Below are positions 1,924 through 64,000 of a stretch of DNA of 64,000 nt, one piece after another; the stretch's first letter is position 1, and the number at the start of each line of letters is the position of its first letter. The DNA is from an uncultured Staphylococcaceae bacterium. Its GTDB lineage: Bacteria > Bacillota_I > Bacilli_A > ML615J-28 > CAG-313. The stretch lies in NCBI GenBank assembly GCA_964409955.1, contig CAYPEY010000001.1:738-64737 (forward strand), given 5' to 3'. The notes under the pieces were generated by a model. The model saw only the letters and a list, made by a program, of their open reading frames with translations, searched no databases and was not told the origin of the DNA. Position numbers and translations under genes: made by a program.

Positions 1924-2583
1924 ATGGCAGAATCAAACAATAACAATATTCCTGCTACACAAGAAACACCAATAGTAGAAAACATTGAAGAAACAGAAAT
2001 TTTAGAAAATGAAGGTCAAGTTGATCCACTTACAATTTTCGAAAACAAACCAACTAAAAAACTTTCAAAATCTGAAAGAAAAAAAATGAGAGTACTTAAA
2101 AAATTATTTGCTGGAGAAATTAATGGAACTGAAGCAGCAAAAAAACTTGGTATTACAACTAGACAAGTTCGTAACTTAAAACGTCAAATTCTTAACGAAG
2201 GTCTTGATGGATTAGCTCATAAGAACAAGAATTATAAACCTTATAATACTTATGATGAAGAAATTAGTACTTTTGTTTGTAAACTTTATAGACGTGAATA
2301 TAGAGGTACTAACTTTAGTGAATTTGCTCGTATTTGTCAAGAACAATATGGTATCGAAGCATCTCGTAGTACAATTTATAATTTCTTAAGACGTGGAAGA
2401 ATTCGTTCACCACAAAGAAAAACTAAAAAGAAAAAGATTGTAGCTGTAGTAGAAACTCCTAGCACTACACCTACTAAAAAAACTACTACTAAGAAACCTG
2501 CAACAAAAAAATCTACAACAACGAAAACTACAACTAAAAAATCTACAACAACGAAAACTACAACTAAAAAAGAAACTAAATAA
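1924..2583 (+). CDS. HTH protein resembling a transposase N-terminal DNA-binding region, with a Thr/Lys-rich repetitive tail
   Basis: AGAAAGGGG lies upstream of the ATG at 1924. The segment GTEAAKKLGITTRQVRNLKRQ...SRSTIYNFLRRG looks like tandem HTH motifs of IS-type transposase N-termini, but no catalytic domain follows. The C-terminus is KKTTTKKPATKKSTTTKTTTKK... Confidence 0.6.
   Translation: MAESNNNNIPATQETPIVENIEETEILENEGQVDPLTIFENKPTKKLSKSERKKMRVLKKLFAGEINGTEAAKKLGITTRQVRNLKRQILNEGLDGLAHKNKNYKPYNTYDEEISTFVCKLYRREYRGTNFSEFARICQEQYGIEASRSTIYNFLRRGRIRSPQRKTKKKKIVAVVETPSTTPTKKTTTKKPATKKSTTTKTTTKKSTTTKTTTKKETK
2511..2570 (+). repeat. Perfect 30-nt tandem duplication inside the CDS (encodes KSTTTKTTTK twice)
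   Basis: 2511-2540 and 2541-2570 are identical: atctacaacaacgaaaactacaactaaaaa. Confidence 0.9.
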
Positions 2584-2612
2584 ACTCTAAAAGAAATTTT
2601 AGAGTTTTTTTT
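2583..2612 (+). terminator. Rho-independent terminator
   Basis: Stem aactctaaaa / ttttagagtt with a GAAA loop, followed by a T-run, directly after the stop codon. Confidence 0.8.
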
Positions 2613-2626
2613 GAAAAAGGAGTATT

Positions 2627-3685: not shown

Positions 3686-3696
3686 TTTACTAATCC
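3679..3696. terminator. Bidirectional hairpin between convergent genes
   Basis: ggattag-ttta-ctaatcc, flanked by an A-run and a T-run. It overlaps both stop codons. Confidence 0.6.
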
Positions 3697-3700
3697 TTTT

Positions 3701-4468
3701 TTATGCTATCTTTTCATCTTCTTTTATTTCTTCATTACTATTAGTTTCTTTTATTTCTTTAGTTGCAAAAGCAAGTGGATTATTACAAACCTTATTTAAC
3801 AAATAATTAGATCCAAATCCAAGAGCTAGCACACCAAATATACCTACAACATATGCAAGTAATGTTGCCCAATAATCTTCAAAGAAATTAAACATATAAA
3901 TACTATATCCGCCATACGGATTCATACCAAAATTATTAGTATGGAATAAATAGTTTAATATTACTACACAAGCTACTACAGAATACATAAATATAACTGA
4001 TTTTTTTAAGTTTTCAAATGTCAGTTTAGCTTGACCACTTGCTATCAAATAAATTCCAAAAATACTACAATTCAAATGACATAATGCATCAAACAAAAAA
4101 GTCATTGAAGCTGTATCATTAAAACTAAATAAGTATGCATACTGAGGAGTTACAAGCATCGCAACAAACATACCAACAGATAAGTACGCAACAGCTTTAA
4201 AATAGTAATCTCTTAATTTATCTTTCATCGCATAAGCAAACGGTAAAGTCGTAAAAGTAAATGGCGAAATATTATCTAGTGTTTGAAATCTAAAATTATC
4301 ACCGACATCATAACTCACTACATAAAAGCTTAAAAATAATATTACATTTGTAACTATAAATACAAAATTTCCGTACTTAGGAGGAATATGTGTGCCATAA
4401 AAAGCAATAAATAAGACTAGTGAGAAATATATGACTACAAGAATAGCAACCATCGCCATCATTGACAT
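3701..4468 (-). CDS. Multi-pass integral membrane protein, function unknown
   Basis: Several hydrophobic segments of about 20 aa and an acidic/Lys C-terminal tail. I recognise no family. Confidence 0.6.
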   Translation of the reverse strand: MSMMAMVAILVVIYFSLVLFIAFYGTHIPPKYGNFVFIVTNVILFLSFYVVSYDVGDNFRFQTLDNISPFTFTTLPFAYAMKDKLRDYYFKAVAYLSVGMFVAMLVTPQYAYLFSFNDTASMTFLFDALCHLNCSIFGIYLIASGQAKLTFENLKKSVIFMYSVVACVVILNYLFHTNNFGMNPYGGYSIYMFNFFEDYWATLLAYVVGIFGVLALGFGSNYLLNKVCNNPLAFATKEIKETNSNEEIKEDEKIA

Positions 4469-4482
4469 ATATAAATCACTCC

Positions 4483-6132
4483 TTATTCATTTTCTTGATT
4501 ATCTATAGCATCTTGATAATTAACTATAATATTTACATTTTCTTTATACCAGTTTGTACTCCATGTAAGCGGAACTTCTTCTTCTGCGAAAGGGCAATCA
4601 ATTTCAAGGCCTTCTGTTGTAAATACTTCTTCTCCCATTGCTTTAACAGTTGATGGAATGTCAACAACTGTTAAACTATCACAATTCATAAATGCACAAT
4701 CACCAATACTAACTACACTTGATGATATTATTAATTTTGTAACATTATTAAATCCAACAAATTGATAATCTTCAATTGTTTTTACTGTTTCAGGAATAAT
4801 AATTTCTTCTAATATCTCGAATTCATTTGTTGCACTTAAAGTATAGAAGTTTTGTCCATAATACATCGGGTTAGCAAATTGATCTTCAAATTTAATATCA
4901 CACCAATTTTCAATTATTCCATTGTAATTAACATTATCTAAATTTATACATCCACTAAAGGCATTTTCATTTACTAATTCTAATGTTGATGGCAAAGTCA
5001 AGTTAATAATATTTTGGCATCCAAAGAATGCTTCTTTTCCAATTTCAACACCACCTGTAATCTCAACAGTTGTTAAAGTTCTGGGAACATTCATTAAATT
5101 TGTAGTAGGTGTTGTTGCGCCAAAAACATAACCAAAATGAGTATTAGTTTTTCCGTTAATAGTTCTACCTACAAAAGGCAAGCTAATGTTTGCTAAATTA
5201 ATACATCCTTCGAATGCACCAAGACCAATACTTGTTACACTATTTGGTACAGTTATTGAAGTTAACCCTATACATCCACTAAATGCATATTGACAAATTG
5301 CTTTAGTATTTTCATTAATTTCACAACTTGTTATTCTATCACTAACAGTAGAAACTAACACAGAATATGGGTTTTCTTCAGTTCCAAGATAATAAGCATT
5401 ATCATATTGATTATATTTAAGATTTTTACATCCATCAAACGCATAATCACCAATTGTTAAAGAATCTGATGAAAATTCAATATTTTCAAGATTTGTACAT
5501 CCTGAAAAAGCTCCATTTCCTAAACTCTTAACACTAGGAGGAATTACGATAGTTTTTAAATTTTTACAATCCTTAAATGCATAAGCACCTATACTTTCTA
5601 CAGTTTCAGGAATCACAATTGTTTCAAGATTTGTACATCCCTCAAACGCATTATCACCAATAGATAAAATACCATCAAGTAAATAAATGCCTGTTAATTT
5701 ATTACAATTTTGAAAAGCTCTAGAAGATATACCAAGTACTTTATAACTTCCTTGATATGCTCCTATATAAACATCTCCAGACACTTCTTCATAAAAATCA
5801 GATATTAAACAATAGTTACCATTATACGAGAACACAACACCATATGAAGTTTCATATTCCCAGATAGCTTTAGTTGTTACATCACCTGTAATTTGACTAT
5901 ACGAATTAGACCATTTTAATAAATAACTACCCTCTTTAACAACAACAGGTGGAGTAGCAGTTTGGCCTCTTCTTACATTTTGAACAAGGTCACCACTTAC
6001 AAGCGTTCCACCATTAATATCAAAAGTTACAGCATAAGTTTTTCTTCCTGCAAACAGTATCAATAAAACAATTATTAATACTGCTAAAAACTCAATACCA
6101 ACAAATAAATATATTTTTAGTTTTTGTTTCAT
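4483..6132 (-). CDS. Surface protein: signal/anchor, one Listeria-Bacteroides (Flg_new) repeat, then BspA-type leucine-rich repeats
   Basis: Start taken at MKQKLKIYLFVGIEF (ATG 6132, preceded by AAGAAAGGA), which avoids overlap with nfo. YAVTFDINGG...KAIWE is the Flg_new module. Recurrent I..I.IP.SV..IG..AF..C..L units are BspA-like LRRs. Confidence 0.8.
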   Translation of the reverse strand: MKQKLKIYLFVGIEFLAVLIIVLLILFAGRKTYAVTFDINGGTLVSGDLVQNVRRGQTATPPVVVKEGSYLLKWSNSYSQITGDVTTKAIWEYETSYGVVFSYNGNYCLISDFYEEVSGDVYIGAYQGSYKVLGISSRAFQNCNKLTGIYLLDGILSIGDNAFEGCTNLETIVIPETVESIGAYAFKDCKNLKTIVIPPSVKSLGNGAFSGCTNLENIEFSSDSLTIGDYAFDGCKNLKYNQYDNAYYLGTEENPYSVLVSTVSDRITSCEINENTKAICQYAFSGCIGLTSITVPNSVTSIGLGAFEGCINLANISLPFVGRTINGKTNTHFGYVFGATTPTTNLMNVPRTLTTVEITGGVEIGKEAFFGCQNIINLTLPSTLELVNENAFSGCINLDNVNYNGIIENWCDIKFEDQFANPMYYGQNFYTLSATNEFEILEEIIIPETVKTIEDYQFVGFNNVTKLIISSSVVSIGDCAFMNCDSLTVVDIPSTVKAMGEEVFTTEGLEIDCPFAEEEVPLTWSTNWYKENVNIIVNYQDAIDNQENE

Positions 6133-42142: not shown

Positions 42143-42622
42143 TTATTTTTCCTCCGCCCCAATAAACTTTAAATATGTTAAAGATTTTTCAGTATGAAAT
42201 AATACTTGGTTATAAAGTTTCTCAACCTTCAATCTCTTTAATGCTTCTTTTAAATCGTAAACGCCAATTTCATAAAATCTAACAACTTCATAAACTCCAT
42301 CATCGGCAACAGGACCTATAACAATATCGTATGTTTCTTGGCACTGTCCTTTGCGGTTAATAGAAACAAAATCTAACCATTCCTTATCCGCTTTATCAAA
42401 ATGAATAATCTTTAATTTGGATTTTGCTTTTTCAATATCAAATTCATACATTGAAACATATCCGATATTTGTTCCTTTCCTACTTTTTTGCTTTTCAGCC
42501 CATTTGATAGCTTGCTCTTCATTCATAGTAGTATAAAAACCATAACCAAAATCTAAATATCTGTCACTAACTCTTATTTCAGGCTTTTCCACAACAAAAA
42601 GACTCCCGTGATATACTTTCAT
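42143..42622 (-). CDS. DUF3990-family protein
   Basis: MKVYHGS...LDFGYGFYTT..EEQA.KWA is the characteristic DUF3990 N-terminal signature. Confidence 0.75.
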   Translation of the reverse strand: MKVYHGSLFVVEKPEIRVSDRYLDFGYGFYTTMNEEQAIKWAEKQKSRKGTNIGYVSMYEFDIEKAKSKLKIIHFDKADKEWLDFVSINRKGQCQETYDIVIGPVADDGVYEVVRFYEIGVYDLKEALKRLKVEKLYNQVLFHTEKSLTYLKFIGAEEK

Positions 42623-42930
42623 ATGATTGCCTCCATTTTTTTAATCTTCACTTGCACTGCTTTTAATTCCTTAACAAGTCCCTCAACAACCTTTCGTCTT
42701 TCAAGTTGTTCCATAACAAGAGCAATATCTTTTTCATTCATACCTATATATTTTGCACACACCTTTTGACCATCTCTATATTTCAAATAATAGTATGTGT
42801 TAGCTTTTGTAATTTTAGGCGTTATCTTTCCTTTTGGCAAGAGTGATAATTCCTTTTCGTATCTCTCTAACATGTATTCATTTCGTTTTCTTTCATCCTC
42901 TAAAACAGAATATATTAGCTGCATAATCAT
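42619..42930 (-). CDS. Hypothetical coiled-coil protein, first gene of the DUF3990 operon
   Basis: 103 aa. Its stop overlaps the next start (ATGA). I cannot name a family. Confidence 0.55.
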   Translation of the reverse strand: MIMQLIYSVLEDERKRNEYMLERYEKELSLLPKGKITPKITKANTYYYLKYRDGQKVCAKYIGMNEKDIALVMEQLERRKVVEGLVKELKAVQVKIKKMEAII

Positions 42931-45625: not shown

Positions 45626-48600
45626 TTAAATTAATTTACCATGAGATGTAGCCCATCTATATACATATTCTAAGCGTTCATAATTTTTCTTACTTAGAAC
45701 AGCTTGTCCATAATTAAATGCTTCTAAAGTACATCTAAATAAATCTTCTTGAGACAATCTTCCTTGCACTCTAATTATTTGATTCATTGCACATAGGATT
45801 TCTTCTTTTGGAATATCATTTAAATCACGATCACTATTAGTTCTAAATACAGACATATCTTTTGACTGATTTTGTGACCAATATACAGTTTGTGATTGAT
45901 CAAGTGTAGAATATTCATTAAATACCCTAAGTGCTGATTGTAATCTATTTTTAGCTTTAGCACTCATACTTTGAATATTAGAATGTTCTCTGACTCTCAT
46001 TTTAATAGTTTCAAATGATACCGGACTTTCTGTTAGAATTATTTCAGATAACAACTTTTGAATTTCACGATCAAATCCATAGTCATTATCATAATCCACG
46101 CAAATTCTAGTTTGTACCTTTATATAATTTGTGCTATTATAACTGAATACCGGAACTACAGCTTTTTCTATATGAGCATCAATTTGATATTCTTCTCTTA
46201 CATATGGTTCACTCATAGCATCAACAATCTTATCAATAGTAGCTTTTCTATCTTTAAAGTATTCAAGTGAATAAATATTAACTATTTTCCATTTTAAAGC
46301 ATTTAATACCGATTCTTGAACGTATATTTTATCTCTACAACTAATTTCTTCACCTAAAACTTGTGAGTCTATTAATATACCTAATTCATAGAAATCACCA
46401 GTTTTATTCTTAATAGCAAGGTCAACTCTAAAATCACTATTACCTACATTAGAAACCACTGTCAATCCTCTGGTTTCTAAATCTTTTTTAATAAAGGAAA
46501 TAATAGTGCCTTTTTCAGCACTTTCATCTTTGAAAGGTTTGAAAGTATTTTCTTCAGCAAATTTTAAGAATTGTTTTAATAACAATTTTCCTTTATTAGA
46601 TATTTTCGAATCTTCCTCAAAATCAGTATATTTAATTGTTGAAATGACAATCATTCTTTCTTTACTTCTACTTACAGCAACATTTAATCTTCTTTGACCA
46701 TTTTCTCTTGCTAGTGGTCCTACAACTACAGCTCTACCTGCTGCATTTTTTCTAAATCCTACTGAAAGTATAATTATGTCACGTTCGTCACCTTGAACAT
46801 TTTCAAGTGACTTAACAAACCAAGCCTCACCTGTTTTATCAAACGCTTCTTCTACTACTTTATTTAACTTTTTATTATTAGCTAATAATTCTGTAATCGC
46901 ATCAAATACTTTTTCTTGTTGTTTCATATTAAACACTATGATCCCTACAGATTTTTTCATTGTTTTTTCGTTTGTATAAATTTCTGTAAATTTATCACAA
47001 ATAGCTTTAATTTCTTCTTCAGTTATATTAGAATTTTTCTTATCTTCTTTTAATTCTACGTGATTATATTCAACAAAGCTATTTGCTGTATTAGGTGATG
47101 GGAAAGTATATAATGTATCATTATAGAAATTATGATTAGAAAAGCTAATTAATGATTCATGTTTACTTCTATAATGATATGCTAATCTTATTCGTGGAAG
47201 TTCTATTGCAATACATTCATCAAGTAATGAGATAGCATCATCAAATTGAACTTCATCTTCTGCTAGTTCAAGTCCTGCAGAAAAGTATGCAGAAGGGGGC
47301 ATTTGTTCGGGGTCACCTGCAACAATTAAAGATTTTCCTCTTGCGATTGGTCCAACTGCTTCATGAGTCGGAATTTGGGATGCTTCATCAAAAATTACTA
47401 AATCAAATTTAGAAACCGATTTACCTTTTTCTTCATCTACTGCAAGATATTGTGCAGCACTTAGTGGTGACATCAAGAAACAAGGGAAATATTTTTTAAT
47501 AATATCATCATAATTCAATAATGTATCTCTTATTGTAACACCACGTCCATTACTAGAAATTGATTTTTTAAGTCTTCCTATTGGAGATGAATTAGCATAA
47601 TTAATATTACTATGATTTAAATTCTTTGTTAATCTTGCGGATACACATTCAATTACTAAATTATTATATTCATTAATTAAATCTTTATATTTTCTTACTT
47701 CACTTTCAAATACAGTTGGATTGAAATAATTGATTTCATCATCTTTAAAATACATTCTTATGTATCCATTTACACAAGATAAATCATACACTTCTTTAAA
47801 GTCATTAAAATCAAATTTATCTTGTTCAATTGCATCAACAAGTTTATTTAAATTCAATTTAACAAGTTCTTTAGCAATTCTATTAACATTAGCTATATCA
47901 ATTAATTCATTAAAATTATTTTCATAAGATGTGTATTCTAACAAATCAATAAATTTATTTATATTATCAGATAATCCATTAAAATTACTATATTTTATTT
48001 TATATTTTTCAGTAAGTTTAATTTCTTCTTCTTTATAAGTTGTTAATTTATTAGCATTTATAGTATACATCATTTTAATAGCAGGATTTTTTGTAGCATA
48101 TAAATTAATAAATAAATTAGATACTTTTATAAAATCTTTATTTTCAGATAAAATATTTAAATTATTTAAGAAACTTCTTGTATTATAATAAGTCTTTTCA
48201 ATATTTTTTACATCTTCAATATTTTCAGAAAAACTGAAGTTTATCATCTTAGATAATGTAGTTGATTGTTCTTGTATTTCTTTAATTAAACTATTATACT
48301 CTTTAATTTGTTCAAAATATGAAGATAAATCTTTTTTATTAATTTTATGCGTTTCTAGAACATATTTCTTTAATAATTTCTTTAAGCGTCCTTTAACTAA
48401 GATTTTTTTAATAAAACCTGTTGCATTATTAATTTCATTTATCGCTGCTTCAGCATCTACTTCACTTAACAAATCAAAATTAAATACATCTTTGTTAGTA
48501 TTTTTGATAGTTACAATTTTGTGAGCTTTATCAAATACTTTTTGATTTTTATCATCATTTTGATTTGACATAAATTCAGTTAAAGTCTCAATATATAATT

Positions 48601-51600
48601 TATGATTTAAACATAAATCAATTGTTGACATAACTGTTGCTACTTCATTATGCTCAAAATCAAATTCTATATCAAAATTAGCAACCATTTCTTTATAAGA
48701 TTTTATGAAATCAAATAATAATGTTTTGACATTACTAAAAGATTCTATAACATTTGCACGATCATAAAAATTGATGTTTTCAATTTTTAATGTTTTAAGT
48801 GGGGTATTATTGAAATCTTGCATATTTGATGCAGAAGAAATATAAGTTTCTATTAAACTATATATTTCACGATTTTTTTCATCATTTAATGATAATAAAA
48901 ATTCTTCATCAAATTCACTATTATAATCTAAATAACTTAATTCAGCTTGTTTTACTATTGCATCGTACAATGAATAGTAATATTTGTTTTCATGCATTTT
49001 ATTAATTGTTTGTAAAACTTTATCTCTTTTTGCTTCTAATTCTTGACATTTTTGCTCAAACTCTTCTGGGTTTTTAGTTACACCAAGTTCCATTGAAGAT
49101 TTTAATTTTTCAAAGAATTCGACTTTATTTGCTTTATTAGAATGTAGTTCAAGACAAAATCTTCCTAAGTTATTATTTGAATTAGGATCTCCTAATTTCT
49201 TTAATCTATCTGCAACAACATCTAGGGCTGCTTTTTTTTCAGCAACAAACAATACTGTTTTACCTTGATAGAAGGCATTAACAATCATATTAACAATTGT
49301 TTGAGATTTTCCTGTTCCCGGAGGACCATCAAGAATAAATGATTTTCCTTCTCCACATTTTAAAATAGCTTTCAACTGAGTTGAATCATAATAAAGTGGT
49401 GCAGCAAAATCTTTATATTTTTCAAGTTTATCAATAGAATCATCAAATGTTGTAACATTGTCAGTTAATAAATTCTTGTTTTCCAATATACTTTGGATAA
49501 CTACGTTCTTCTTAAGTTCTTCTTTTCTTTTTCTAACATCAAGCCACATAATATAATGAGCAAAAGTTAAGTTAGCAATAAAGAAAGCTTCTTCATCTAA
49601 TTGAATATCTTCGATATTATTTGCTTTAAATGTGTGAACAATATCCATGTAATTATCATTTGAATTAATTTGATATAGTTCACTAAAATCAATGTCTGGA
49701 TGTTCTTGCTTATAATATTCAAAGAAAGTTTGGTTTATCATTATATCATCATAATCATAATGCATTGTATAATTATAATTCATCTTGTCTTTTGTTATTT
49801 TAATAGGTAATACCATAAATGGCGCATTTCCTTTTAAATGTCCTTTTTTACGATTATATGTTAATAACCCAAGACATAAATACAATGTTGGAGCACCGGT
49901 TTCATCCATTGCAGAATTTGATTTTTTAATCAAATTCTTTAATGTTTGGTCATAACCAATGGCAAGCATTTTATCACTACCAAATTCATCACCAAAAATT
50001 TCAAATGGTTTAGCACTACCAAGCATAAATTCATTTTCTAATGTTTTTGATGTAACATTGCTATTTTCTAGAGGAAAAGTAGCAAATTTTATAGCACCTT
50101 GATTATTTAATAGAAGTTCATAGATTTTACTATCACTAGTCATTTTTAAACAATTTGATGTTCTTAAATGAAAGTTAACTAGTGGATTTGCTTCTGTTAA
50201 ATCTAGTAATCTTCTTTCCCAAAAAGTAAATCGGTCTTTTTCGGTTTCTCTTAATACATCTTTATAAATTGTTTCAACAATACTATCTAAATTTTTATTT
50301 TCGATTTCCTTTGGTTTAATTAATAATTCTAATTCATCATCAACACCTATTGTTGGAATTGGTGTAAAAATGCCTTTATGAGCAAGTTTTACATCGATTG
50401 CGGAGAAGCTTCTTCCATTGTACATCTTGATATTTAATAATCCTTCATCCATTGCATCTTTAAAAGAGGCTTCTTTTGCTGCAGTAAACATTGTACATTC
50501 AACAAGAACTAATTTATCCATCCCACCAGTTGCTTGATTATATACTTTACCACATTGATATTCAACAGCGTTAGGGAAATTTAATTTATCATCTAAAAAG
50601 AATCCCGCAAATGCATGATTATCAATAAGCACTAAGATTGAATTATATCCTACTTCTTGCATACAAGCGCAATATAATATTGCTAAATCAAGACAAGTCC
50701 CCTTTTTATCATTTAAAACTTCACCAGGCATTCTTACTCTTTGTGTAACAAGTCCACCTGCAGGTGGATTTTGATAAACAATTCCCCAATCATGTAAAGC
50801 AAGATAAATCGCTTGTGCTTCTTCTAACATTTTATTATATCTATCTTTACCAACATGTTGGTAAGCTATGATTTCTTCATTATTATTAAATTTTGTAGCA
50901 TTTAAAGCAATTTGTTTTACTCTTGAATCTACAGGAGTAATATATTTAGCATATAATCTATAATCATTATGAATATTTATAGAAGGTTCACAAATAGGGT
51001 GGACAATAAATCTTTCTTCAGAAGATGCTATTGTTTTGCCATCCTCTTGATCTATTAATTGAATCTCTACTGTTGCAGTATCGTTTTCAGTAAGTTTTTC
51101 TAATAATGCTTTATTTACCTTTAGGAAAGGTATTCTAATTTCTAATATTTCACAAGTTCCAAGTTTTATAATATGAACATCGTTCATATTAAAAATTTCA
51201 CTTGAAAAAGAAAATTTTAAAAGTAAGTTTGAATATTCATAACTTGTAATATTAGCAATCACAATTTCTTGTATTAAGGAATAGTCTGTTGTATATAAAT
51301 CATCTTTAATTTTCATCAAGCAGTCAGCATGATGATCAACATATGAAAATTCTGGATTTACAAATGAAACGATTTCTAATCTTTCTTCTAATTCAATATT
51401 ATCTTGTTTTTTATATTTCAATTTCTTTTTCAAGTTTTCGATAATTTTTTCTTTTTTATTTGTATTATCATTATTTGTCTCTTCTTGAACCTCTGTTTTT
51501 TGTTCATTATCATTATTTTCTTTTATAGTAGGTTCTATAAATTTATTTGTTACTTTTTTTAATTCAGAAATAGGATAACGAGAACTTTCTTTTTCAACAT

Positions 51601-51754
51601 ATTGGATTTCTAATACTTTAATCTTTTCTGATTTTTCTTCAACATTAACAAAATCTCCAACATTTATGTCTTCAATATCACATAAATATACATACGTTTC
51701 ATAAGAGTCTTCTATTCTACCTATTATTATCTTATATTCCTTATTTTCTAGCAT
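45626..51754 (-). CDS. 2042-aa multidomain protein: transglutaminase-like Cys-protease fold, DUF4011, Upf1-like SF1 helicase (AAA_11/AAA_12) with a long helical insert, REase-like domain and DUF3320
   Basis: KKGTCLDLAILYCACMQ...DNHAFAG gives the TGase-like Cys/His pair (aa about 350-385). RRLLDLTEANPLVNF is the DUF4011 signature (aa about 515). Helicase motifs: Walker A GPPGTGKS (aa 809-816), FDEASQ (1455-1460), VAGDPEQMPP, YHYRS, QGDERD and RRLNVAVSRSK. DFRVDLAI...ELGILIDS (aa about 1774-1796) is Vsr/DUF559-like. The C-terminal part looks like DUF3320. Confidence 0.8.
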   Translation of the reverse strand: MLENKEYKIIIGRIEDSYETYVYLCDIEDINVGDFVNVEEKSEKIKVLEIQYVEKESSRYPISELKKVTNKFIEPTIKENNDNEQKTEVQEETNNDNTNKKEKIIENLKKKLKYKKQDNIELEERLEIVSFVNPEFSYVDHHADCLMKIKDDLYTTDYSLIQEIVIANITSYEYSNLLLKFSFSSEIFNMNDVHIIKLGTCEILEIRIPFLKVNKALLEKLTENDTATVEIQLIDQEDGKTIASSEERFIVHPICEPSINIHNDYRLYAKYITPVDSRVKQIALNATKFNNNEEIIAYQHVGKDRYNKMLEEAQAIYLALHDWGIVYQNPPAGGLVTQRVRMPGEVLNDKKGTCLDLAILYCACMQEVGYNSILVLIDNHAFAGFFLDDKLNFPNAVEYQCGKVYNQATGGMDKLVLVECTMFTAAKEASFKDAMDEGLLNIKMYNGRSFSAIDVKLAHKGIFTPIPTIGVDDELELLIKPKEIENKNLDSIVETIYKDVLRETEKDRFTFWERRLLDLTEANPLVNFHLRTSNCLKMTSDSKIYELLLNNQGAIKFATFPLENSNVTSKTLENEFMLGSAKPFEIFGDEFGSDKMLAIGYDQTLKNLIKKSNSAMDETGAPTLYLCLGLLTYNRKKGHLKGNAPFMVLPIKITKDKMNYNYTMHYDYDDIMINQTFFEYYKQEHPDIDFSELYQINSNDNYMDIVHTFKANNIEDIQLDEEAFFIANLTFAHYIMWLDVRKRKEELKKNVVIQSILENKNLLTDNVTTFDDSIDKLEKYKDFAAPLYYDSTQLKAILKCGEGKSFILDGPPGTGKSQTIVNMIVNAFYQGKTVLFVAEKKAALDVVADRLKKLGDPNSNNNLGRFCLELHSNKANKVEFFEKLKSSMELGVTKNPEEFEQKCQELEAKRDKVLQTINKMHENKYYYSLYDAIVKQAELSYLDYNSEFDEEFLLSLNDEKNREIYSLIETYISSASNMQDFNNTPLKTLKIENINFYDRANVIESFSNVKTLLFDFIKSYKEMVANFDIEFDFEHNEVATVMSTIDLCLNHKLYIETLTEFMSNQNDDKNQKVFDKAHKIVTIKNTNKDVFNFDLLSEVDAEAAINEINNATGFIKKILVKGRLKKLLKKYVLETHKINKKDLSSYFEQIKEYNSLIKEIQEQSTTLSKMINFSFSENIEDVKNIEKTYYNTRSFLNNLNILSENKDFIKVSNLFINLYATKNPAIKMMYTINANKLTTYKEEEIKLTEKYKIKYSNFNGLSDNINKFIDLLEYTSYENNFNELIDIANVNRIAKELVKLNLNKLVDAIEQDKFDFNDFKEVYDLSCVNGYIRMYFKDDEINYFNPTVFESEVRKYKDLINEYNNLVIECVSARLTKNLNHSNINYANSSPIGRLKKSISSNGRGVTIRDTLLNYDDIIKKYFPCFLMSPLSAAQYLAVDEEKGKSVSKFDLVIFDEASQIPTHEAVGPIARGKSLIVAGDPEQMPPSAYFSAGLELAEDEVQFDDAISLLDECIAIELPRIRLAYHYRSKHESLISFSNHNFYNDTLYTFPSPNTANSFVEYNHVELKEDKKNSNITEEEIKAICDKFTEIYTNEKTMKKSVGIIVFNMKQQEKVFDAITELLANNKKLNKVVEEAFDKTGEAWFVKSLENVQGDERDIIILSVGFRKNAAGRAVVVGPLARENGQRRLNVAVSRSKERMIVISTIKYTDFEEDSKISNKGKLLLKQFLKFAEENTFKPFKDESAEKGTIISFIKKDLETRGLTVVSNVGNSDFRVDLAIKNKTGDFYELGILIDSQVLGEEISCRDKIYVQESVLNALKWKIVNIYSLEYFKDRKATIDKIVDAMSEPYVREEYQIDAHIEKAVVPVFSYNSTNYIKVQTRICVDYDNDYGFDREIQKLLSEIILTESPVSFETIKMRVREHSNIQSMSAKAKNRLQSALRVFNEYSTLDQSQTVYWSQNQSKDMSVFRTNSDRDLNDIPKEEILCAMNQIIRVQGRLSQEDLFRCTLEAFNYGQAVLSKKNYERLEYVYRWATSHGKLI

Positions 51755-51953
51755 GTTATCCTCCCCTTTTTAATAAATTACTATTTTATATTATTATACA
51801 ATATATTTTGGCATTTTTCAATTTTAAAACTTGTTCTAAAAAACATGAGTTTTTCTTAAATATCAAAATTTAAAATACAAAAAACTTAATTATGACTAAA
51901 TTTAGCAGCTATTATAATTCTAAATATCATATACATTAATAATTATATTTTTC

Positions 51954-51989
51954 AAAAAGCGAAGAATCACGACGATTCTTCGCTTTTTT
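51954..51989. terminator. Bidirectional rho-independent terminator
   Basis: aaaaa-gcgaagaatc-acgac-gattcttcgc-tttttt. It separates the two-gene operon from the giant ORF. Confidence 0.8.
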
Positions 51990-52124: not shown

Positions 52125-52481
52125 TTATAAAGTTGCCATACAAGTTATTATAGCTTTTTTAGTTTTGAATACACCTAACTTGTATGTAATTTCAACTCTT
52201 AATTTTAGTTGATTTCCATTTAAATCACTTGTAGAAATACTTTGTTCCATTGTACCTTCATTAATTTTAATAGCCACTAATTTACCAGATTTAGATGTAT
52301 AATACCCTTCTATTTTTGTAATTTTTATATCTGTTTTCTTTTTAATCCTTAAATCCGTAACAAACTCATATTTTTTTACTTTTTTTAATAGCCCTGTTTC
52401 CACCACGCCATTAGTCTTAATAACCTTTAATGTAGCTATTAAATTATTGTCTTGTTCCTTTTGTAAATAACTATTTCCCAT
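52125..52481 (-). CDS. Hypothetical 118-aa Lys-rich, beta-rich protein
   Basis: AGGAGG lies 6 nt upstream of the ATG. That SD overlaps the stop of the upstream gene. No family recognised. Confidence 0.7.
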   Translation of the reverse strand: MGNSYLQKEQDNNLIATLKVIKTNGVVETGLLKKVKKYEFVTDLRIKKKTDIKITKIEGYYTSKSGKLVAIKINEGTMEQSISTSDLNGNQLKLRVEITYKLGVFKTKKAIITCMATL

Positions 52482-52490
52482 TGTATCCTC

Positions 52491-53426
52491 CTATTTTAAT
52501 ATAGTTTGTAATTTTAATACAACTTCACCAATATCTTTTTTAATTTTTCTTTTTTTATCAGTTACTTCTATTGTAGTTTTTTGCTTATTAAAGAGTTTCC
52601 CTGTATTATAAACTACCTCTTTTGTTTCTTTATAAGTTTGCGTAATATTGCAAACGAGATTTAATTTTATTTCTAAATTAACCTTGTTATTAGTTTGTAA
52701 ATCAATTTCTGATAATGGAACCAATAAAGAAATATTTTTTGAATCATTAACTTTTAAAACTTTATTTAACACTTCTCTTTTAGTTTTATTTACAGCATAT
52801 ACAATGCATTTTACATCCAAATTACCACCATTAATATTTAAAAATTTAAGTCTTATATTAGAAATTAATGTTTTTCTAAAATGATCTACTTTGCATTTTG
52901 AATCTAATTCAGCTAATATTTCTATATTATTAACTTTAACAACATGTTTATTTTGATCTTTATTAAAAAAATTTTTTTGGTCTTCTAGCACTATTTTTGC
53001 CTTACTAAAAGCAGTAATTTTTAAAGTATCAATTAAGGAATCACAAATATCATTATAAACTACCACTATAGACAGAATATCTACTTTTGGTAAACTATCT
53101 AACGTATGTTTGTTTTTATTTCCCAAAGAATTTACTTCTAGTACTGATAATAACTCACCAAGTTTAGGTCTTTTTAATACTTTGTTAGTTAAAAAATCTA
53201 TTCCAGCTAAACACGTGTGATTTCGTACCTTTGGGCCTATAACAATTTGCTCCACTATTAAGGCTAGCTTTGTAATTAAATTTTGCATACTATTAATAAA
53301 GACTGTTTGATATTTATTTAGAACGCATTCTGATGCACTATATTTAAATGCTTGGAATTCTTTTTGAAGTATTAAATTTTCTGCAATTCTATCAGCATTA
53401 TCAACTTTTGCTATTGTTCGATTCAT
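52491..53426 (-). CDS. Hypothetical 311-aa protein: helical N-terminal half with a GNKNKH motif, beta-rich C-terminal half
   Basis: TTGGAGG SD upstream of the ATG. No TM segments. VNSLGNKNKHT faintly recalls the R..GN...H motif of DUF4145-type HEPN-like domains, but it lacks the Arg. Confidence 0.7.
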   Translation of the reverse strand: MNRTIAKVDNADRIAENLILQKEFQAFKYSASECVLNKYQTVFINSMQNLITKLALIVEQIVIGPKVRNHTCLAGIDFLTNKVLKRPKLGELLSVLEVNSLGNKNKHTLDSLPKVDILSIVVVYNDICDSLIDTLKITAFSKAKIVLEDQKNFFNKDQNKHVVKVNNIEILAELDSKCKVDHFRKTLISNIRLKFLNINGGNLDVKCIVYAVNKTKREVLNKVLKVNDSKNISLLVPLSEIDLQTNNKVNLEIKLNLVCNITQTYKETKEVVYNTGKLFNKQKTTIEVTDKKRKIKKDIGEVVLKLQTILK

Positions 53427-53459
53427 GTTTCCTCCAATCTTGATTTTAATCTTAATTTA

Positions 53460-53488
53460 ATTTTAACATAATTTGACATTTTTAGCAA
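53460..53488 (-). promoter_or_regulatory. Candidate sigma-A promoter for the two-gene operon
   Basis: The minus strand reads TTGCTA-17 nt-TAAAAT, about 35 nt upstream of the ATG. Confidence 0.35.
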
Positions 53489-53532
53489 CTACAATACTTA
53501 GTATCTTATAGTAGTAGTTAATGCATTTTTAA

Positions 53533-53597
53533 TTTCAATACCTATTATAAATTAAGTATTATAGTACAATAAAAATAGTTAAAGAAACTATTGTAAC
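53533..53597 (-). CRISPR. Decayed repeat fragments at the trailer end of the array
   Basis: caatacctat at 53536-53545 and taaagaaactattgtaac ending at 53597 are recognisable pieces of the repeat. The second fragment is in register with the array (68 nt from repeat 1). Confidence 0.45.
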
Positions 53598-53634
53598 AAA
53601 ACTATCCATTTAGTTGTAAAACCTTATCACAAAG

Positions 53635-55787
53635 GATGCAATACCTATAAAGGAACTATTGTAATTATTACACCAGAAATCAAAGAATATATCACTATCA
53701 CTGCAATACCTATAAAGGAACTATTGTAATCAGATTAAAAGAACTGGAGGTCGCTCAAGAAGATAGCTGCAATACCTATAAAGGAACTATTGTAATTAAC
53801 TGGTGCTTGTCAATATGGTACTAATCGTTGGGCTGCAATACCTATAAAGGAACTATTGTAATGTAAAATGTAAATGGGAGGAAAAAGATTTTTATTTCAG
53901 CTGCAATACCTATAAAGGAACTATTGTAATTATCAACTTGTTAATAAAGAGTTTGTTCCATTATTGCTGCAATACCTATAAAGGAACTATTGTAATTTTT
54001 TGGAATAACTAAAGAAAATAAAAAATATTATTGCTGCAATACCTATAAAGGAACTATTGTAATTGGTTCAATTAATGTTTTAAGTGGCAAAAATCTTGCT
54101 GCAATACCTATAAAGGAACTATTGTAATATGAATTTAATTATTTTTGATACTGAAACAATTGGGCTGCAATACCTATAAAGGAACTATTGTAATATGAAT
54201 TTAATTATTTTTGATACTGAAACAATTGGGCTGCAATACCTATAAAGGAACTATTGTAATATTTAAGAGTTTATTTCACTACTCATAAGCCTAAAGCTGC
54301 AATACCTATAAAGGAACTATTGTAATGCTAAAGTCGAAATTATCGCAAATGCACAACCTGAAGCTGCAATACCTATAAAGGAACTATTGTAATGGTAAAA
54401 GTTATACATACAACAAAGATCAAATTGGCTGCAATACCTATAAAGGAACTATTGTAATCAACAAGAAAACTTAATCTCAACTAAAGTGGCTGAAGAGCTG
54501 CAATACCTATAAAGGAACTATTGTAATAAGAAATTTTTGCTTATGAAGCTGTAGAAAATTTATAGCTGCAATACCTATAAAGGAACTATTGTAATTTTTA
54601 GATATTGGTAGACCAGGTATTAAGTATAAGCTGCAATACCTATAAAGGAACTATTGTAATTGTTAAAGGAAGGGGCAACAAGTTTTAAATATATAGCTGC
54701 AATACCTATAAAGGAACTATTGTAATTATTACACTTAATAGTCCTCTTTCTAAAGAACAAAGCTGCAATACCTATAAAGGAACTATTGTAATACGAACTT
54801 AAAAATTTTGCTGATGAGAATAATGATGAGCTGCAATACCTATAAAGGAACTATTGTAATTAAATAAAGATTTTGATAATGTATCAATAAATCTGCTGCA
54901 ATACCTATAAAGGAACTATTGTAATTTTAACTTATGATAGTGTAGAAGTTGCTGTAACAGAGCTGCAATACCTATAAAGGAACTATTGTAATTAGTTGGG
55001 ATGATATCGAAGAAATGATAATTTATGGCGCTGCAATACCTATAAAGGAACTATTGTAATAAAACAAGAGGGGCGTATTTAGTTAGTCCAAACGAGCTGC
55101 AATACCTATAAAGGAACTATTGTAATTTTTGGATACTACAAAATGAATTTAACTATTGAAAGCTGCAATACCTATAAAGGAACTATTGTAATATGGCAGA
55201 TATAAAACAACAAGGTGTTAATAATCAAGCTGCAATACCTATAAAGGAACTATTGTAATGATAATCCAGACGGAAAGCCGCAAGCAAGTAATTAGCTGCA
55301 ATACCTATAAAGGAACTATTGTAATTTTTATTTATTAAAAGATAATAGAATAATTGATAGCGCTGCAATACCTATAAAGGAACTATTGTAATTTTAATAT
55401 TCGGAAAAGGAGAAGAAGATCCAAAAGGCTGCAATACCTATAAAGGAACTATTGTAATTATTATTAGAGGTTATTATGATGGTCATGCAAAAGGCTGCAA
55501 TACCTATAAAGGAACTATTGTAATAAGATTCTGACGCTTGGTTATGTACTGGTGCTCGTGCTGCAATACCTATAAAGGAACTATTGTAATGGTGGTATAG
55601 GTTCACAAGCAAAAGCTCTTAAAAAGCTGCAATACCTATAAAGGAACTATTGTAATTATTTACAAGTGAAAAAGGAAAAGAGAAGTTAGAGCTGCAATAC
55701 CTATAAAGGAACTATTGTAATTAGACGAATACATTATCAAACATACAACAAAAGAGGCTGCAATACCTATAAAGGAACTATTGTAAT
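53635..55787 (-). CRISPR. CRISPR array: 33 repeats of 30-31 nt with 32 spacers of about 34-37 nt
   Basis: Repeat (plus strand): GCTGCAATACCTATAAAGGAACTATTGTAAT. I located all 33 copies (first at 53635, last 55757-55787). The mutated and decayed copies are at the low-coordinate end and the AT-rich leader and cas2 are at the high end, so transcription is on the minus strand. In that orientation the repeat ends in ATTGCAGC. Confidence 0.97.
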
Positions 55788-57174: not shown

Positions 57175-57895
57175 TTCTTTTTTTATTGACCATTCCAAGA
57201 CCACTTGAGTTCTTTGAACCTATTCCACAGGTTAATATTACTTTTTTTATTTGTGGGGTTAATCCAGATATTGTAAGTGTTAAATGATATGCAATAGTGA
57301 AATTTGATCTAAAGTATATCTTTTTCTTTTTTACTGAATTGATATCACTAATTTCAATTTCAGACATATTTTCTTTATAGATTAAATAATATTTTTTTGC
57401 TAAATTTTGAATAATAGCTTGTTTAAATTCTTCTGTAGTTGGTTCAAAATATTTAGTTTTTTTATTTTCATCTGTTATATAAGATGTAATAGGTGAAAGA
57501 GTAGTATAGGTTTCAATTTTTGTGTTATCACAAAAATCATCTAATAAATTATATGCTAAAACTTTTATTAACTGTTTACCAAATAATAATGTATTATTTT
57601 GAGTAATAAAATTTATAAAAGCTACTGTGATTTCATCATCATAAGATGTGAAATCAAAATATCCAGTATCAGAAAAATGAAGTTCTCTTGATTGTTCTAA
57701 GTATTGTGTATCTCCATAAATTTCTGAATATGTGAAAAGTTTAAATTTTCTTTTCCCAAGTGTAAACCCTTGGTCATGGATAGTTTGAATTTTATCATAA
57801 TTATATAAAGAATTATAAATTATTCCTTGTAACAAACTATGATATTGAACAGGAATTTTTTTATCTTTTAAATCTAATACTACTCTGATACGCAT
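57149..57895 (-). CDS. cas6: CRISPR endoribonuclease Cas6
   Basis: 248 aa. MRIRVVL...P.QYHSLLQG.IY start and the C-terminal Gly-rich loop GIGSKNSSGLGMV. Confidence 0.88.
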   Translation of the reverse strand: MRIRVVLDLKDKKIPVQYHSLLQGIIYNSLYNYDKIQTIHDQGFTLGKRKFKLFTYSEIYGDTQYLEQSRELHFSDTGYFDFTSYDDEITVAFINFITQNNTLLFGKQLIKVLAYNLLDDFCDNTKIETYTTLSPITSYITDENKKTKYFEPTTEEFKQAIIQNLAKKYYLIYKENMSEIEISDINSVKKKKIYFRSNFTIAYHLTLTISGLTPQIKKVILTCGIGSKNSSGLGMVNKKRNEKKNISN

Positions 57896-58578
57896 TTTAC
57901 GATACCTCCACCTATATATGCATATTTTCCAACACCTATATCTATTAATATAATAGGGTAATCTATAACTTCAGCTTGAAATATTTTACCTGATATTTTG
58001 ATTTTTTTATTATTAATTATATACTGCGTTTTATCTTTAAAGTCTAGTGAACTTCCAACATTTTTAAATGTTGGAAGTTTAAAAGATGTTTTATAAGTTT
58101 CATTAAAATATTTAATTGATGAGATTATATCTAAAGTATCAGTAACTACATTTTGGTATTTTATGATACCACTATAACATTTTTCTTCATCGATAATTGT
58201 ATTTTCTACTAATACTTTTTGATAGAAATTACCAGCTAAATATTCATCAGAATCCATAAACGTAGTTATGAATTCTGAATAATTCATCGCAACTCCGATT
58301 AAGTTAAAAGTAACCTGAAAGGTTTCTTTTGGACCATATGATCTTTTGTTAGCTAGATTTCTATTTATTGTAATACTTGGATATTGTTCAAAGTTTTCTC
58401 CTGATAATAAATAATAAATACATTTGAATTCTTTTGTACAATTTAAACAATCTTTATCACTAATACAACAACAAGAACATATTTCTTGGTAGATCTTTTT
58501 TAAAAGTATAATCTCTGGATCTTTTTGAAAATTAGCTCCAAGCGGAAATCTAATATTGTATTTAATTCTTCTAATCAT
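57880..58578 (-). CDS. Unclassified RAMP-like protein with a Cys cluster and a C-terminal Gly-rich loop
   Basis: 232 aa. Contains CSCCCISDKDCLNCTKEFKC, and GVGKYAYIGGGIV at the C-terminus. It sits between csm5 and cas6 and overlaps both neighbours. Confidence 0.55.
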   Translation of the reverse strand: MIRRIKYNIRFPLGANFQKDPEIILLKKIYQEICSCCCISDKDCLNCTKEFKCIYYLLSGENFEQYPSITINRNLANKRSYGPKETFQVTFNLIGVAMNYSEFITTFMDSDEYLAGNFYQKVLVENTIIDEEKCYSGIIKYQNVVTDTLDIISSIKYFNETYKTSFKLPTFKNVGSSLDFKDKTQYIINNKKIKISGKIFQAEVIDYPIILIDIGVGKYAYIGGGIVKCVSE

Positions 58579-61945: not shown

Positions 61946-64000
61946 TTATCCTCTCTTTCTTGTTTTCATTAATGCCATCGCAAAAACGATTTTATAAAAT
62001 TCTATTACTTCTTTTTTAACTTCTTTTACAACAAATATTTGTCTTAATTTTTCAAACCATTTTTCATTCATATTTCTCTTTATTGAATATGCAATTAATG
62101 GAATGAAACGCATAAAGGCATGTTCTGAATTATTTACTTCAAGACTTCTAATTATATATTCATAAATTTCATATAATCCGCTTCTTGATAAAGTTTCATC
62201 TAATAAACCTTTTTCAAATACTTCTATTTCTTCTAATAAATAATTCATTTTAGAATTATTTAAAGTTACTCCAAGGAGGTTAAATGAATTTTTATTATCT
62301 TGTAGTTTAGATTCTGATAAATTGTCTTCTGCTCTTTCAATTGAATATCTTACTGGTGATTTTGAAGAAAAGAATTCAATACCAGCACTAATATGTAATG
62401 ATTTATTATAACCTGTGAATTTACTAAATTCATAGTTGATATCTTTAACAAGTTCTAAAACCATAGATGCTGGAGAAATAATAACTAAGTCATCTCCTCC
62501 GGCATAATTTATATACATACTTTCTTTAAACTTAGGTTGATTGCATATATTCACAATTTCTTTTGAGAAGAAATAATCAACCATACGAGAAAGTGTTAAG
62601 TTTTTAGATATTGTTTCTTTACTTTGTTTAATACCATTTAAGAATATATAACCTAAATTATCAACGTCCATTTTAAGTACTGCTAATTTATCATCACCGG
62701 TACTGTTTTTCGCAATTTCTTCAAATGACTTAGATCCTATATTAGATTTAGCATAAAGTTTTGTTTCACCTATTTTGTAATTATTAACAGATACATAATA
62801 AGAATCAACATTTTCTAAAACAAATTTCTTAGCAGAATACATTCTAATTGTTCCAAGTCCATTTACTTTAACTATTGCTTCAGCTTTACTATCATTATTT
62901 AAATAATCATATTCAATAATAAACTCATCATATGAAGTAAGTACTCTATCGTTAATTTTTAATAGTGTATCGCAGAAACTACATACTTCTTCGTTATTAA
63001 CTTTATTAGAAAAACATATTGGACATAAACAGAAATCTTTGTTTTCTTCATTTAAATCAATATTATTTAATATTGATTTAAATTTTTTCTTTTTATCACT
63101 TATGAATGTAACGCCTTCACGAACTAAATCATCAATTTGTGATTTAATTAACCCTTCATCATCTACTTCTGTATAAGCTATTGAAAAACTAATATCACAG
63201 TTATGCATTTTAAACATTGCTTGTTCGATTTTAACTGCAATTTCTTTTAATTTTTCTTCAAAGTTAGGACCTTTAGTTACTAATATTCTTCCACGTCCAC
63301 CAGATGAATAAAGAACATTTTCATAAGTTACCCCAAATTCGTTAACAATATAATATGCAATAAAATCAGTTAAAACACTTAAATAAAATGATCTTGTTCT
63401 TAAGTGTTTAGCTACTTTGGGTTTAGATTCTCTTCCTTCAGCAACCTTGTAAATGAATTTTTGAATTCCTGAAATATCATAATCAATTAAAGCATAATTA
63501 GCATTTTCATCTTTCTCTAAGCAATTAGCTATTGCTGTAGTAAGTTTCAAGTGATCAAATAAACTAATAGTTGATACACCTTTTTTATCTACATATCCAG
63601 GTACAGTAACAGTATTTTCTTTAATAATTGGATATAAAAGATGATGTAGTTCTTTATAATCTTTATACCCTTTATCATTCATTTCTTTTAAAGCAAGTTC
63701 TAAATTATTATATAAATTTTTATATTCAATTTTACTTGCATCAAGTAATTTCTTTTCAACATATTTTTGATTTAATAATGCTTTTGCTGAAGTTAATTTA
63801 AGTTCATAACGTTCATTAACTTGATTTTTATCAATGTTAATTTCATTAAAAATTGTATCTAAACGAGTTATACTATTATTATCTTTTTCATTATCTATTT
63901 TTTCATATTCACTTAATATTTGTTCACTAAGATCTTTTCGGTCGTGACCAGTCGCAATATAATCAGCTTTCTTAATAATAGAATTTGAATATTGATGATA
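61946..64000 (-). CDS. cas10: Cas10/Csm1, partial (N-terminus lies beyond the window edge)
   Basis: GGDD lies at 62489-62500 (YAGGDDLVI), and a CxxC...CxxC zinc finger is present. The track starts this ORF at the Met at 63682. My manual translation shows the frame stays open from 63683 to 64000 (YHQYSNSIIKKADYIATGHDRKDLSEQ...), which fits the end of an HD domain. Confidence 0.9.
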   Translation of the reverse strand, partial: YHQYSNSIIKKADYIATGHDRKDLSEQILSEYEKIDNEKDNNSITRLDTIFNEINIDKNQVNERYELKLTSAKALLNQKYVEKKLLDASKIEYKNLYNNLELALKEMNDKGYKDYKELHHLLYPIIKENTVTVPGYVDKKGVSTISLFDHLKLTTAIANCLEKDENANYALIDYDISGIQKFIYKVAEGRESKPKVAKHLRTRSFYLSVLTDFIAYYIVNEFGVTYENVLYSSGGRGRILVTKGPNFEEKLKEIAVKIEQAMFKMHNCDISFSIAYTEVDDEGLIKSQIDDLVREGVTFISDKKKKFKSILNNIDLNEENKDFCLCPICFSNKVNNEEVCSFCDTLLKINDRVLTSYDEFIIEYDYLNNDSKAEAIVKVNGLGTIRMYSAKKFVLENVDSYYVSVNNYKIGETKLYAKSNIGSKSFEEIAKNSTGDDKLAVLKMDVDNLGYIFLNGIKQSKETISKNLTLSRMVDYFFSKEIVNICNQPKFKESMYINYAGGDDLVIISPASMVLELVKDINYEFSKFTGYNKSLHISAGIEFFSSKSPVRYSIERAEDNLSESKLQDNKNSFNLLGVTLNNSKMNYLLEEIEVFEKGLLDETLSRSGLYEIYEYIIRSLEVNNSEHAFMRFIPLIAYSIKRNMNEKWFEKLRQIFVVKEVKKEVIEFYKIVFAMALMKTRKRG

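Follow-up and report, generated by a model that had tools for sequence, protein, structure and literature searches.

Two adjacent genes that lie directly after a type III-A CRISPR array raise the question of whether they serve the CRISPR system at whose trailer end they stand or belong to a system of their own. The genes, here termed A and B, are found in a stretch of 64,000 nucleotides (nt) of DNA from an uncultured Staphylococcaceae bacterium (assembly GCA_964409955.1, contig CAYPEY010000001.1, positions 738 to 64,737), which is referred to below as the window and whose coordinates are used throughout. A preliminary description of the pair proposed three options: an ancillary effector with its partner, a toxin-antitoxin pair, or unrelated cargo. 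Of these, cargo that is independent of CRISPR is now favored, while the ancillary role is left unsupported and the toxin-antitoxin role is weakened. Taken as a whole, it is about evenly balanced whether A and B, which are coupled in translation, constitute an autonomous conflict- or defense-type module of an undescribed family that resides in a defense island and works outside the CRISPR system. The parts of this reading carry different weights: independence from CRISPR is highly probable, a role in defense or conflict is plausible at a level slightly short of even, and a function specifically as an RNase is unlikely.

The pair and its signals are laid out as follows.

52491 to 53426, minus strand: gene A, 311 amino acids, two domains (open reading frame, homologues, AlphaFold2 (AF2) model)
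52992 to 53426, minus strand: N-terminal domain of A, predicted all-alpha (DSSP of the model; conserved in 52 homologues)
53106 to 53132, minus strand: signature motif of A (alignment of 52 sequences)
52494 to 52949, minus strand: predicted beta-sandwich of A, termed C1 (AF2 strands; subgroup 1 conservation)
52125 to 52481, minus strand: gene B, 118 amino acids, free-standing and putatively beta-rich domain (profile alignment, orthologues)
53431 to 53437, minus strand: Shine-Dalgarno sequence of A, TTGGAGG (sequence reading)
52487 to 52492, minus strand: Shine-Dalgarno sequence of B, AGGAGG (sequence reading)
53460 to 53488, minus strand: weak candidate promoter of the pair (consensus scan, 9 of 12)
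51954 to 51988, both strands: predicted bidirectional intrinsic terminator past B (folding energy, flanking A and T runs)

Both genes are encoded on the strand of the cas operon and the array, as had been described and as gene order and coordinates confirm. The Shine-Dalgarno sequence of A lies 4 nt ahead of its ATG (upstream sequence on the minus strand, GATTGGAGGAAACATG). The A-B junction, which reads AAATAGGAGGATACAATG on the minus strand, leaves an intergenic gap of 9 nt, and the Shine-Dalgarno sequence of B overlaps the TAG stop codon of A (52491–52493). Both signals had been called strong, and the second was said to overlap the first stop codon; these points can be read directly from the sequence. 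At the base composition of the window, chance would produce about 2e-11 open reading frames with 311 or more codons and about 0.03 with 118 or more, and full-length homologues have been found for A as well as B. Given this low expectation together with the homologues, A and B are genuine genes, and the pair is conserved.

About 135 nt past the stop codon of B, a hairpin of 15 base pairs (51954–51988; −20.9 kcal/mol, z −5.4) that is bordered on either side by A and T runs separates A-B from a neighboring helicase gene. This hairpin is a predicted intrinsic terminator that can act in both directions, in agreement with the strong bidirectional terminator noted earlier past the 118-residue gene. 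Between the array trailer and A, a consensus scan that also missed the 51954–51988 hairpin found no terminator, and the 214 nt of this interval fold no better than shuffled sequences (z −0.14), which bears out the earlier statement that the last repeat and A are not separated by a hairpin terminator. Upstream of A there is a promoter-like site with an extended −10 element (53460–53488, minus strand; TTGCTA, 17 nt, TG-n-TAAAAT; 9 of 12 consensus matches). Sites of this kind are no commoner in the region than in shuffles, and it is a weak candidate for the pair’s own promoter. It is possible that array transcripts read through into A-B here, which is seen as positional and not functional coupling.

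The AF2 model of A, built with an alignment of 52 homologues, reaches a predicted local distance difference test score (pLDDT) of 93.1 and a predicted template modeling score of 0.64, compared to a pLDDT of 34 for a single-sequence AF2 prediction. In this model, the N-terminal domain, or N-domain (residues 1 to ~145), is all-alpha, with eight helices spanning residues 11–143 as assigned by DSSP. The C-terminal domain, C1 (residues ~160–311), is all-beta and forms a beta-sandwich, with strands from 160 to 309. It ends in a very long beta-hairpin (strands 248–274 and 281–309) whose tip carries the sequence Y-x-T-G-x-L-F-x-K-K. This tip is conserved in the subgroup of the family to which A belongs (subgroup 1), and G276 and K281 are invariant there.

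The N-domain is the sole part of A that is conserved over all 52 aligned homologues. Its signature, N99-S-L-G-N103-K-N-K106-H107 in A (53106–53132, minus strand), follows the family consensus [IV]N-x-x-[GA]-N-x-x-K-H and is found in 79 of 81 family proteins. Residues N103, K106, H107, and N125 are invariant across the aligned sequences, and conservation of N99, F43, and Q48 reaches 90% or more. The polar residues form a cluster spread over three helices (Q48; N99, N103, K106, and H107; N125), which is without any acidic residue. In the model, the signature sits in a short helix of 10 residues. A helical N-terminal half with a GNKNKH motif and a beta-rich C-terminal half had been described from the sequence; the model agrees with this division, and the motif turns out to be the family signature.

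Both proteins are basic, with isoelectric points of 9.5 for A and 9.8 for B and lysine contents of 14% and 17%. No transmembrane segment is found in either protein (maximum 19-residue Kyte-Doolittle hydropathy of 1.42 in A and 1.10 in B), so that hydropathy and composition both agree with the preliminary description. For B, which had been called beta-rich and Lys-rich, the lysine content is computed, and its beta-rich character is probable from composition and homology.

The family to which A belongs is rare, fast-evolving, and undescribed, as judged from sequence comparison. A HMMER scan of 1.84 billion cluster representatives returns relatives of A in 74 clusters at E≤1e-3 and in 28 at E≤1e-10, and these are mostly ~280–330 amino acids long with 20–35% identity. 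When A and B were each searched against 5.8 billion proteins through a word index, only the query itself came back. Pfam, NCBIfam, PADLOC-DB 2.0, and PHROGs yield no family for A or B, in line with the earlier failure to recognize one, and across 52 family members there is no recurrent match in Pfam, PADLOC, PHROGs, or NCBIfam; PADLOC-DB 2.0 gives one match to these 52 proteins, which is at chance level. Neither the A profile nor the B profile had a match among PDB sequences. With the whole A model as query, Foldseek finds no match in PDB or BFVD at E≤1e-3, and its weak matches are to Ig-like and other beta-sandwich domains (transglutaminase barrels, GH2 Ig-like domains, and C2). The family is thus an undescribed one with a confident yet unmatched predicted two-domain structure; an effector-plus-partner logic in a defense island is already known.

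The architectures of the family are informative about B. In subgroup 1, which includes A, the N-domain is followed by the C1 beta-sandwich of ~150 residues. In subgroup 2, a low-complexity linker leads from the N-domain to a beta-rich domain that differs from C1, of ~110 residues. Other members fuse the N-domain to FGE-sulfatase, Sel1 repeats, or SHOCT. Sequence comparison thus presents the N-domain as the constant module and the C-terminal modules (C1, B-like, FGE-sulfatase, Sel1 repeats, SHOCT) as interchangeable. When a profile built from three B proteins is compared with the family, its positions 6–112 of 116 align with the C-termini of 24 family proteins at E-values down to ~5e-14. B and the subgroup 2 C-terminus align collinearly; G25 and K108 are invariant, and the motif Y-K-[IL]-G-L-F-K-T-K is shared. 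By this alignment, B is a free-standing copy of the subgroup 2 C-terminal domain, supplied in trans here: the N-domain and B-like domain form a single chain in most of the family and two genes in the window. The counterpart of B is thus joined to the N-domain of A in the majority of the family, which supports a functional link between A and B. Homology between C1 and the B-like domain was also considered and is not established (hhalign probability ~2%; marginal collinear P = 0.035 with greedy settings).

The pairing recurs in other genomes. Two proteins, P0005 and P0007, are the closest homologues of A whose downstream DNA could be seen, and both have B alongside. P0005 is 35% identical to A and is encoded in locus L011, behind recG-rnc; P0007 is 30% identical and is encoded in loci L014 and L015. 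The B orthologues stand directly after the A orthologues, with 35% identity to B in L011 and 40% in L014/L015. In L011 the gap is 2 nt, with a GGAGG inside the end of A, and in L014 it is 16 nt, with an AAGGAG. Both pairs are bicistrons with a tight junction and with intrinsic terminators on both sides. An element, TATRCACACACAT, lies upstream of A-B in L011 (8046–8104, two copies) and in L014 (75–100), and from its sequence may be an operator. Other subgroup 1 genes are found without B: P0006 has a terminator directly after it, P0012 a convergent gene, and P0014 an adh_short gene. The subgroup 2 genes are solo. The proposed functional pairing of the two genes is thereby supported, both by the fused B-like domain and by the recurring pair; the expectation that they co-occur is borne out in two other genomes and does not extend to P0006, P0012, and P0014.

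The fetched homologue loci number ~13 that are mutually unrelated, with L020/L022 and L018/L021/L031/L032/L035 forming related groups; this is a small sample in which short contigs are frequent. Within it, a k-mer scan finds no CRISPR array in any locus, and phmmer with the window’s Cas proteins finds no cas gene. The suggestion that the genes might track with type III loci is therefore not supported, as none of the ~13 unrelated loci carries an array or a cas gene. A scan of GTDB genomes for syntenic loci, based on Cas1, gave one distant and uninformative locus. With two family members as queries, tblastn found nothing among 50,697 phage records and 72,556 plasmid records. A degenerate DNA pattern designed by hand for the family gave 19 metagenome matches, 10 of them true and all of these from subgroup 2, and one IMG/VR match to this pattern was a false positive.

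The genes around the homologues are varied. Conflict-type neighbors include a Schlafen-type helicase, a Sel1 protein, a Macro domain protein, an Eco57I-like methyltransferase, and DUF1016_N. In L007 (5004–9882), a subgroup 2 homologue stands directly after a cluster of VWA, a 100-residue and a 168-residue protein, Ser/Thr kinase, VWA, and PP2C, and is flanked by large Sel1-repeat proteins; the arrangement is reminiscent of TerY-P or vWA ternary conflict systems. In L014, the gene downstream of the pair (2026–5184) encodes a protein of more than 1053 residues with an RNA-dependent RNA polymerase-like (RdRP-like) match (PF05183, 2.2e-10) and Pterin_bind. A match to a eukaryote-type RNA-dependent RNA polymerase is unusual for a bacterial contig. 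The L011 contig stops ~90 nt past B.

The CRISPR locus upstream of the pair is a complete one of type III-A, and its array is as follows.

53530 to 55787, minus strand: type III-A array, 33 repeats with trailer-end relics (repeat scan)

The same-strand gene order is cas10-csm2-csm3-csm4-csm5-(232 amino acids)-cas6-cas1-cas2, followed by the 33 repeats of the array (~53635–55787), whose trailer points toward gene A. Degenerate repeat relics at the trailer end (53530–53633; for example, GTTACAATAGTTTCTTTAACTATTTTTATTGTAC on the minus strand) extend to within ~100 nt of A. The cas10 gene is cut by the window edge (63683–64000), and a same-strain Logan contig, L012, encodes a Cas10 of 753 amino acids with an N-terminal HD motif and the GGDD cyclase motif. 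On that contig, the gene 12 nt upstream of cas10 (3–335) ends in a Csm6 HEPN domain with the motif RNYAAH (Pfam 2.4e-12). Since this Csm6 HEPN gene is present upstream of cas10, the III-A locus already has a canonical effector activated by cyclic oligoadenylate (cOA). The stretch from 45.6 to 64 kb, which contains these genes, has 24–26% GC compared to 29% in the remaining window, and it is a defense island.

Two side observations concern the CRISPR locus. At 54089–54220 in the array, two consecutive repeat-spacer units are 94% identical and have identical spacers (ATGAATTTAATTATTTTTGATACTGAAACAATT...), which is a spacer duplication. In the interval between csm5 and cas6, a Cys-rich open reading frame of 232 codons (57880–58578, minus strand) has a weak PADLOC match to Cas6 (1.5e-4) and no Pfam or NCBIfam family; from its sequence, this may be a degenerate second protein of the Cas6-like kind or an undescribed III-A subunit.

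On the other side of the pair, downstream of B and on the same strand, lies a large helicase gene.

45626 to 51754, minus strand: PDC-S37/Hhe-type helicase-nuclease, 2042 amino acids (PADLOC, Pfam)

This protein matches the PADLOC models PDC-S37 (6.5e-238) and Hhe (1.5e-102). Its Pfam domains are DUF4011, a superfamily 1 (SF1) helicase, and an MTES_1575 restriction endonuclease (REase); a DUF3320 match stays below threshold, at 16 bits against a cut-off of 25. The PDC-S37 model begins to align at residue 507, and the N-terminal ~500 residues ahead of this point are not covered by it and have only a weak transglutaminase-core match; no HEPN domain is detectable by Pfam in the 2042 residues. A promoter-like site with 11 of 12 consensus matches (51793–51821) precedes the gene. 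The plasmid homologues of the helicase that were examined are solo genes without A-B. A literature search on PDC-S37 found nothing. Giant proteins that combine HEPN, transglutaminase, SF1 helicase, and Vsr REase domains have been described, and MTES_1575-type members with an N-terminal HEPN are among them (PMC3710099).

Whether A is itself a HEPN protein bears on its possible activity. The HEPN motif Rx4-6H, in which a polar residue usually follows the R, is not present in the A family, which has [GA]-N-x-x-K-H, with invariant Asn and His at a HEPN-like spacing, no Arg, and an invariant K106. HEPN RNases fold as a four-helix up-down bundle whose dimer makes a composite active site; the N-domain of A is modeled as all-alpha, with eight helices. 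HEPN families that keep the His without the Arg have been documented, namely Parep1/8 and c2405 (PMC3710099). Compared to the CARF-HEPN proteins Csm6 and Csx1, A shares a III-A location, and its GN-x-x-KH-T-L resembles the RN-x-x-x-H-T-L of the locus’s Csm6. It differs from them in having no CARF domain, no conserved Arg, no profile similarity, and no CRISPR linkage elsewhere, and in having a beta-sandwich in place of a Rossmann-like sensor. The stand-alone HEPN proteins of abortive infection (Abi), which include AbiD/F, AbiJ, AbiU2, and DUF4145-like proteins (Anantharaman et al. 2013, PMC3710099), resemble A in their helical domain with an N...H motif, in their occurrence as solo genes or small operons in variable and often defense-type contexts, and in their Sel1 links; DUF4145 and AbiU2 are fused or operon-linked to Sel1 repeats and to Zn-ribbon or Zn-binding modules (PMC3710099). 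The A family differs from these in that it has no Pfam HEPN match, lacks the Rx4-6H motif, and carries its own motif on a short helix. A further likeness is to the nucleoside triphosphate (NTP)-dependent conflict systems with FGS, vWA, kinase-PP2C, and Sel1 (Kaur et al. 2020, PMC7159879). Here the N-domain fusions to FGE-sulfatase (FGS) and Sel1, and the homologue that follows the VWA-kinase-VWA-PP2C cluster, are the points in common, and they rest on a handful of loci; the window’s pair has none of those partners and no NTPase.

Several results weigh against the reading of A-B as a defense module with a HEPN-like effector. No HEPN Pfam family is found among the 52 family members at E≤0.1, and the best 50 Foldseek matches of the whole A model are without a HEPN structure; the earlier suggestion to look for a HEPN fold finds no support at this whole-model level. 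An hhalign comparison of A with the locus’s Csm6 HEPN fragment aligns the two motifs with a probability of just 0.3%. HEPN membership is therefore a lead and not a classification, since it fails at the level of sequence and profile, and the whole-model fold search lends it no support. PADLOC 2.0 holds no model for either A or B. Several homologues adjoin ordinary metabolic genes, and the defense-type neighborhoods are few, anecdotal, and without statistics. In addition, the TATRCACACACAT element is missing upstream of the window’s A. Because it is absent there and no terminator is found between the array and A, expression of A-B could depend on array transcription in this genome.

The position of the pair invites the explanation that A-B is a type III ancillary effector with its partner, co-transcribed with precursor CRISPR RNA (pre-crRNA) and activated by cOA made by Cas10 or by another product. 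In favor of it, A-B follows the array at once, shares its strand, and is reached across a terminator-free interval; the GGDD motif of Cas10 is intact, and the GNKNKHTL of A is superficially like the RNYAAHTL of the locus’s Csm6. The AF2 model of A is all-alpha and all-beta, however, and holds no alpha/beta sensor of the CARF or SAVED type, two folds that had been named for testing; Pfam, NCBIfam, and PADLOC give no CARF or SAVED match either. With this sensor absent, none of the ~13 unrelated homologue loci near CRISPR-cas, a Csm6 already in the locus, and the pair forming an operon of its own in other genomes, the idea of A-B as a dedicated type III ancillary effector is rejected, and this explanation is highly improbable. 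The helicase offers another possible host system, in which A and B would be accessory subunits of a PDC-S37/Hhe-like helicase and A would give the HEPN domain in trans. Members of the Hhe/PDC-S37/MTES_1575 class share the island with A-B here, and some carry an N-terminal HEPN; HEPN-fused giant helicases are described (PMC3710099), and the window’s helicase, which adjoins A-B downstream on the same strand, has no detectable HEPN of its own. Against this, the helicase is a separate transcription unit, with a strong predicted terminator and a separate promoter-like site between it and B, and it does not co-occur with A-B elsewhere: the plasmid homologues examined are solo, and the gene downstream of the L014 pair is RdRP-like, with no detectable pairwise similarity to the helicase (L011 ends too soon after B to be read). 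A and the helicase N-termini also show no profile similarity. A role for A as a trans-acting HEPN supplier has accordingly been rejected, and the accessory-subunit explanation as a whole is very improbable.

A further explanation is a classical toxin-antitoxin system, with A as toxin and B as labile antitoxin, acting in island stabilization or abortive infection. Like type II systems, A-B consists of two translationally coupled genes in a compact operon within an island; the coupling is conserved, the distribution is patchy, and a DUF3990 toxin-like gene is nearby in the window. Unlike those systems, the pair lacks its presumed antitoxin in close A-type homologues (P0006, P0012, and P0014), and most family members carry a B-like domain and the putative toxin domain in one covalent chain, an arrangement at odds with a degradable antitoxin. 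B carries no DNA-binding antitoxin fold signature, and neither protein matches a toxin or antitoxin family, so that this explanation is improbable. An ordinary cellular role, for example as a nucleic-acid- or ligand-binding regulator whose adjacency to the array is coincidental, has a small but real chance of being correct. It would suit the basic character of both proteins, the homologues that adjoin sugar-metabolism or housekeeping genes, and the lack of a defense model matching A or B; it would be harder to reconcile with a family that is extremely sparse, patchy, and divergent, that swaps C-terminal domains of types typical for conflict systems, and that recurs beside defense-type genes. 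The possibility that A and B are structural genes of a prophage or mobile element, which had been named as an outcome that would refute the preliminary reading, is effectively refuted. C1 weakly resembles Ig-like domains, which phage proteins also have, but the BFVD fold search has no match at E≤1e-3, no PHROG recurs, tblastn with two family members is empty in phage and plasmid records, the IMG/VR pattern match is false, and no homologue locus contains phage genes.

Two further observations lie outside the island. A DUF3990 protein of 159 amino acids (Pfam 8.9e-50) is preceded by an overlapping, family-less open reading frame of 103 codons (42143–42930, minus strand), and from sequence the two, which lie a short way outside the island, resemble a pair of toxin-antitoxin type. 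In addition, Rfam reports a group II intron match (RF00029) at 1323–1389 on the minus strand, with 43.1 bits against a gathering score of 40.

To return to A-B as an autonomous module, the combination of a constant helical domain bearing a polar cluster with swappable partners suggests the usual effector-plus-sensor design of conflict systems, by analogy. The helical N-domain would be the effector. Because His, Lys, and Asn are conserved without acidic residues, metal-independent phosphodiester cleavage is suggested, and the effector could be a metal-independent phosphodiesterase or RNase that uses these three residues. Its GN-x-x-KH would mimic the RN-x-x-x-H of HEPN but without the Arg. Binding of a target or trigger would fall to the beta-sandwich modules, with C1 acting in cis and B in trans; they would also restrain the effector, and phage infection or other stress would release it, with abortive infection or arrested growth as the outcome. 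In this genome, transcripts that run on from the array may contribute to the transcription of A-B as an accident of position. The biochemical function of A-B proposed here is inferred from sequence and predicted structure. The most specific form of the proposal is a new anti-phage or abortive-infection system, which would also take in the single-chain proteins of N-domain and B-like domain, with an all-alpha N-x3-N-x2-K-H catalytic domain (which could be HEPN-like but degenerate, or else an unrelated nuclease that needs no metal), interchangeable beta-sandwich sensors in cis or in trans, and a dose tied to pre-crRNA transcription; it is put forward tentatively and with considerable doubt.

The locus carries a caution for the mining of CRISPR neighborhoods, in that a coupled operon after a type III array can mimic an ancillary module when comparative context says that it is independent cargo. 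If A-B is indeed a defense or abortive-infection system, it would bring in a new protein family and, perhaps with it, a catalytic domain not described before. Its architecture, in which an effector and a beta-sandwich sensor are split in some genomes and fused in others, would then be easy to dissect experimentally.

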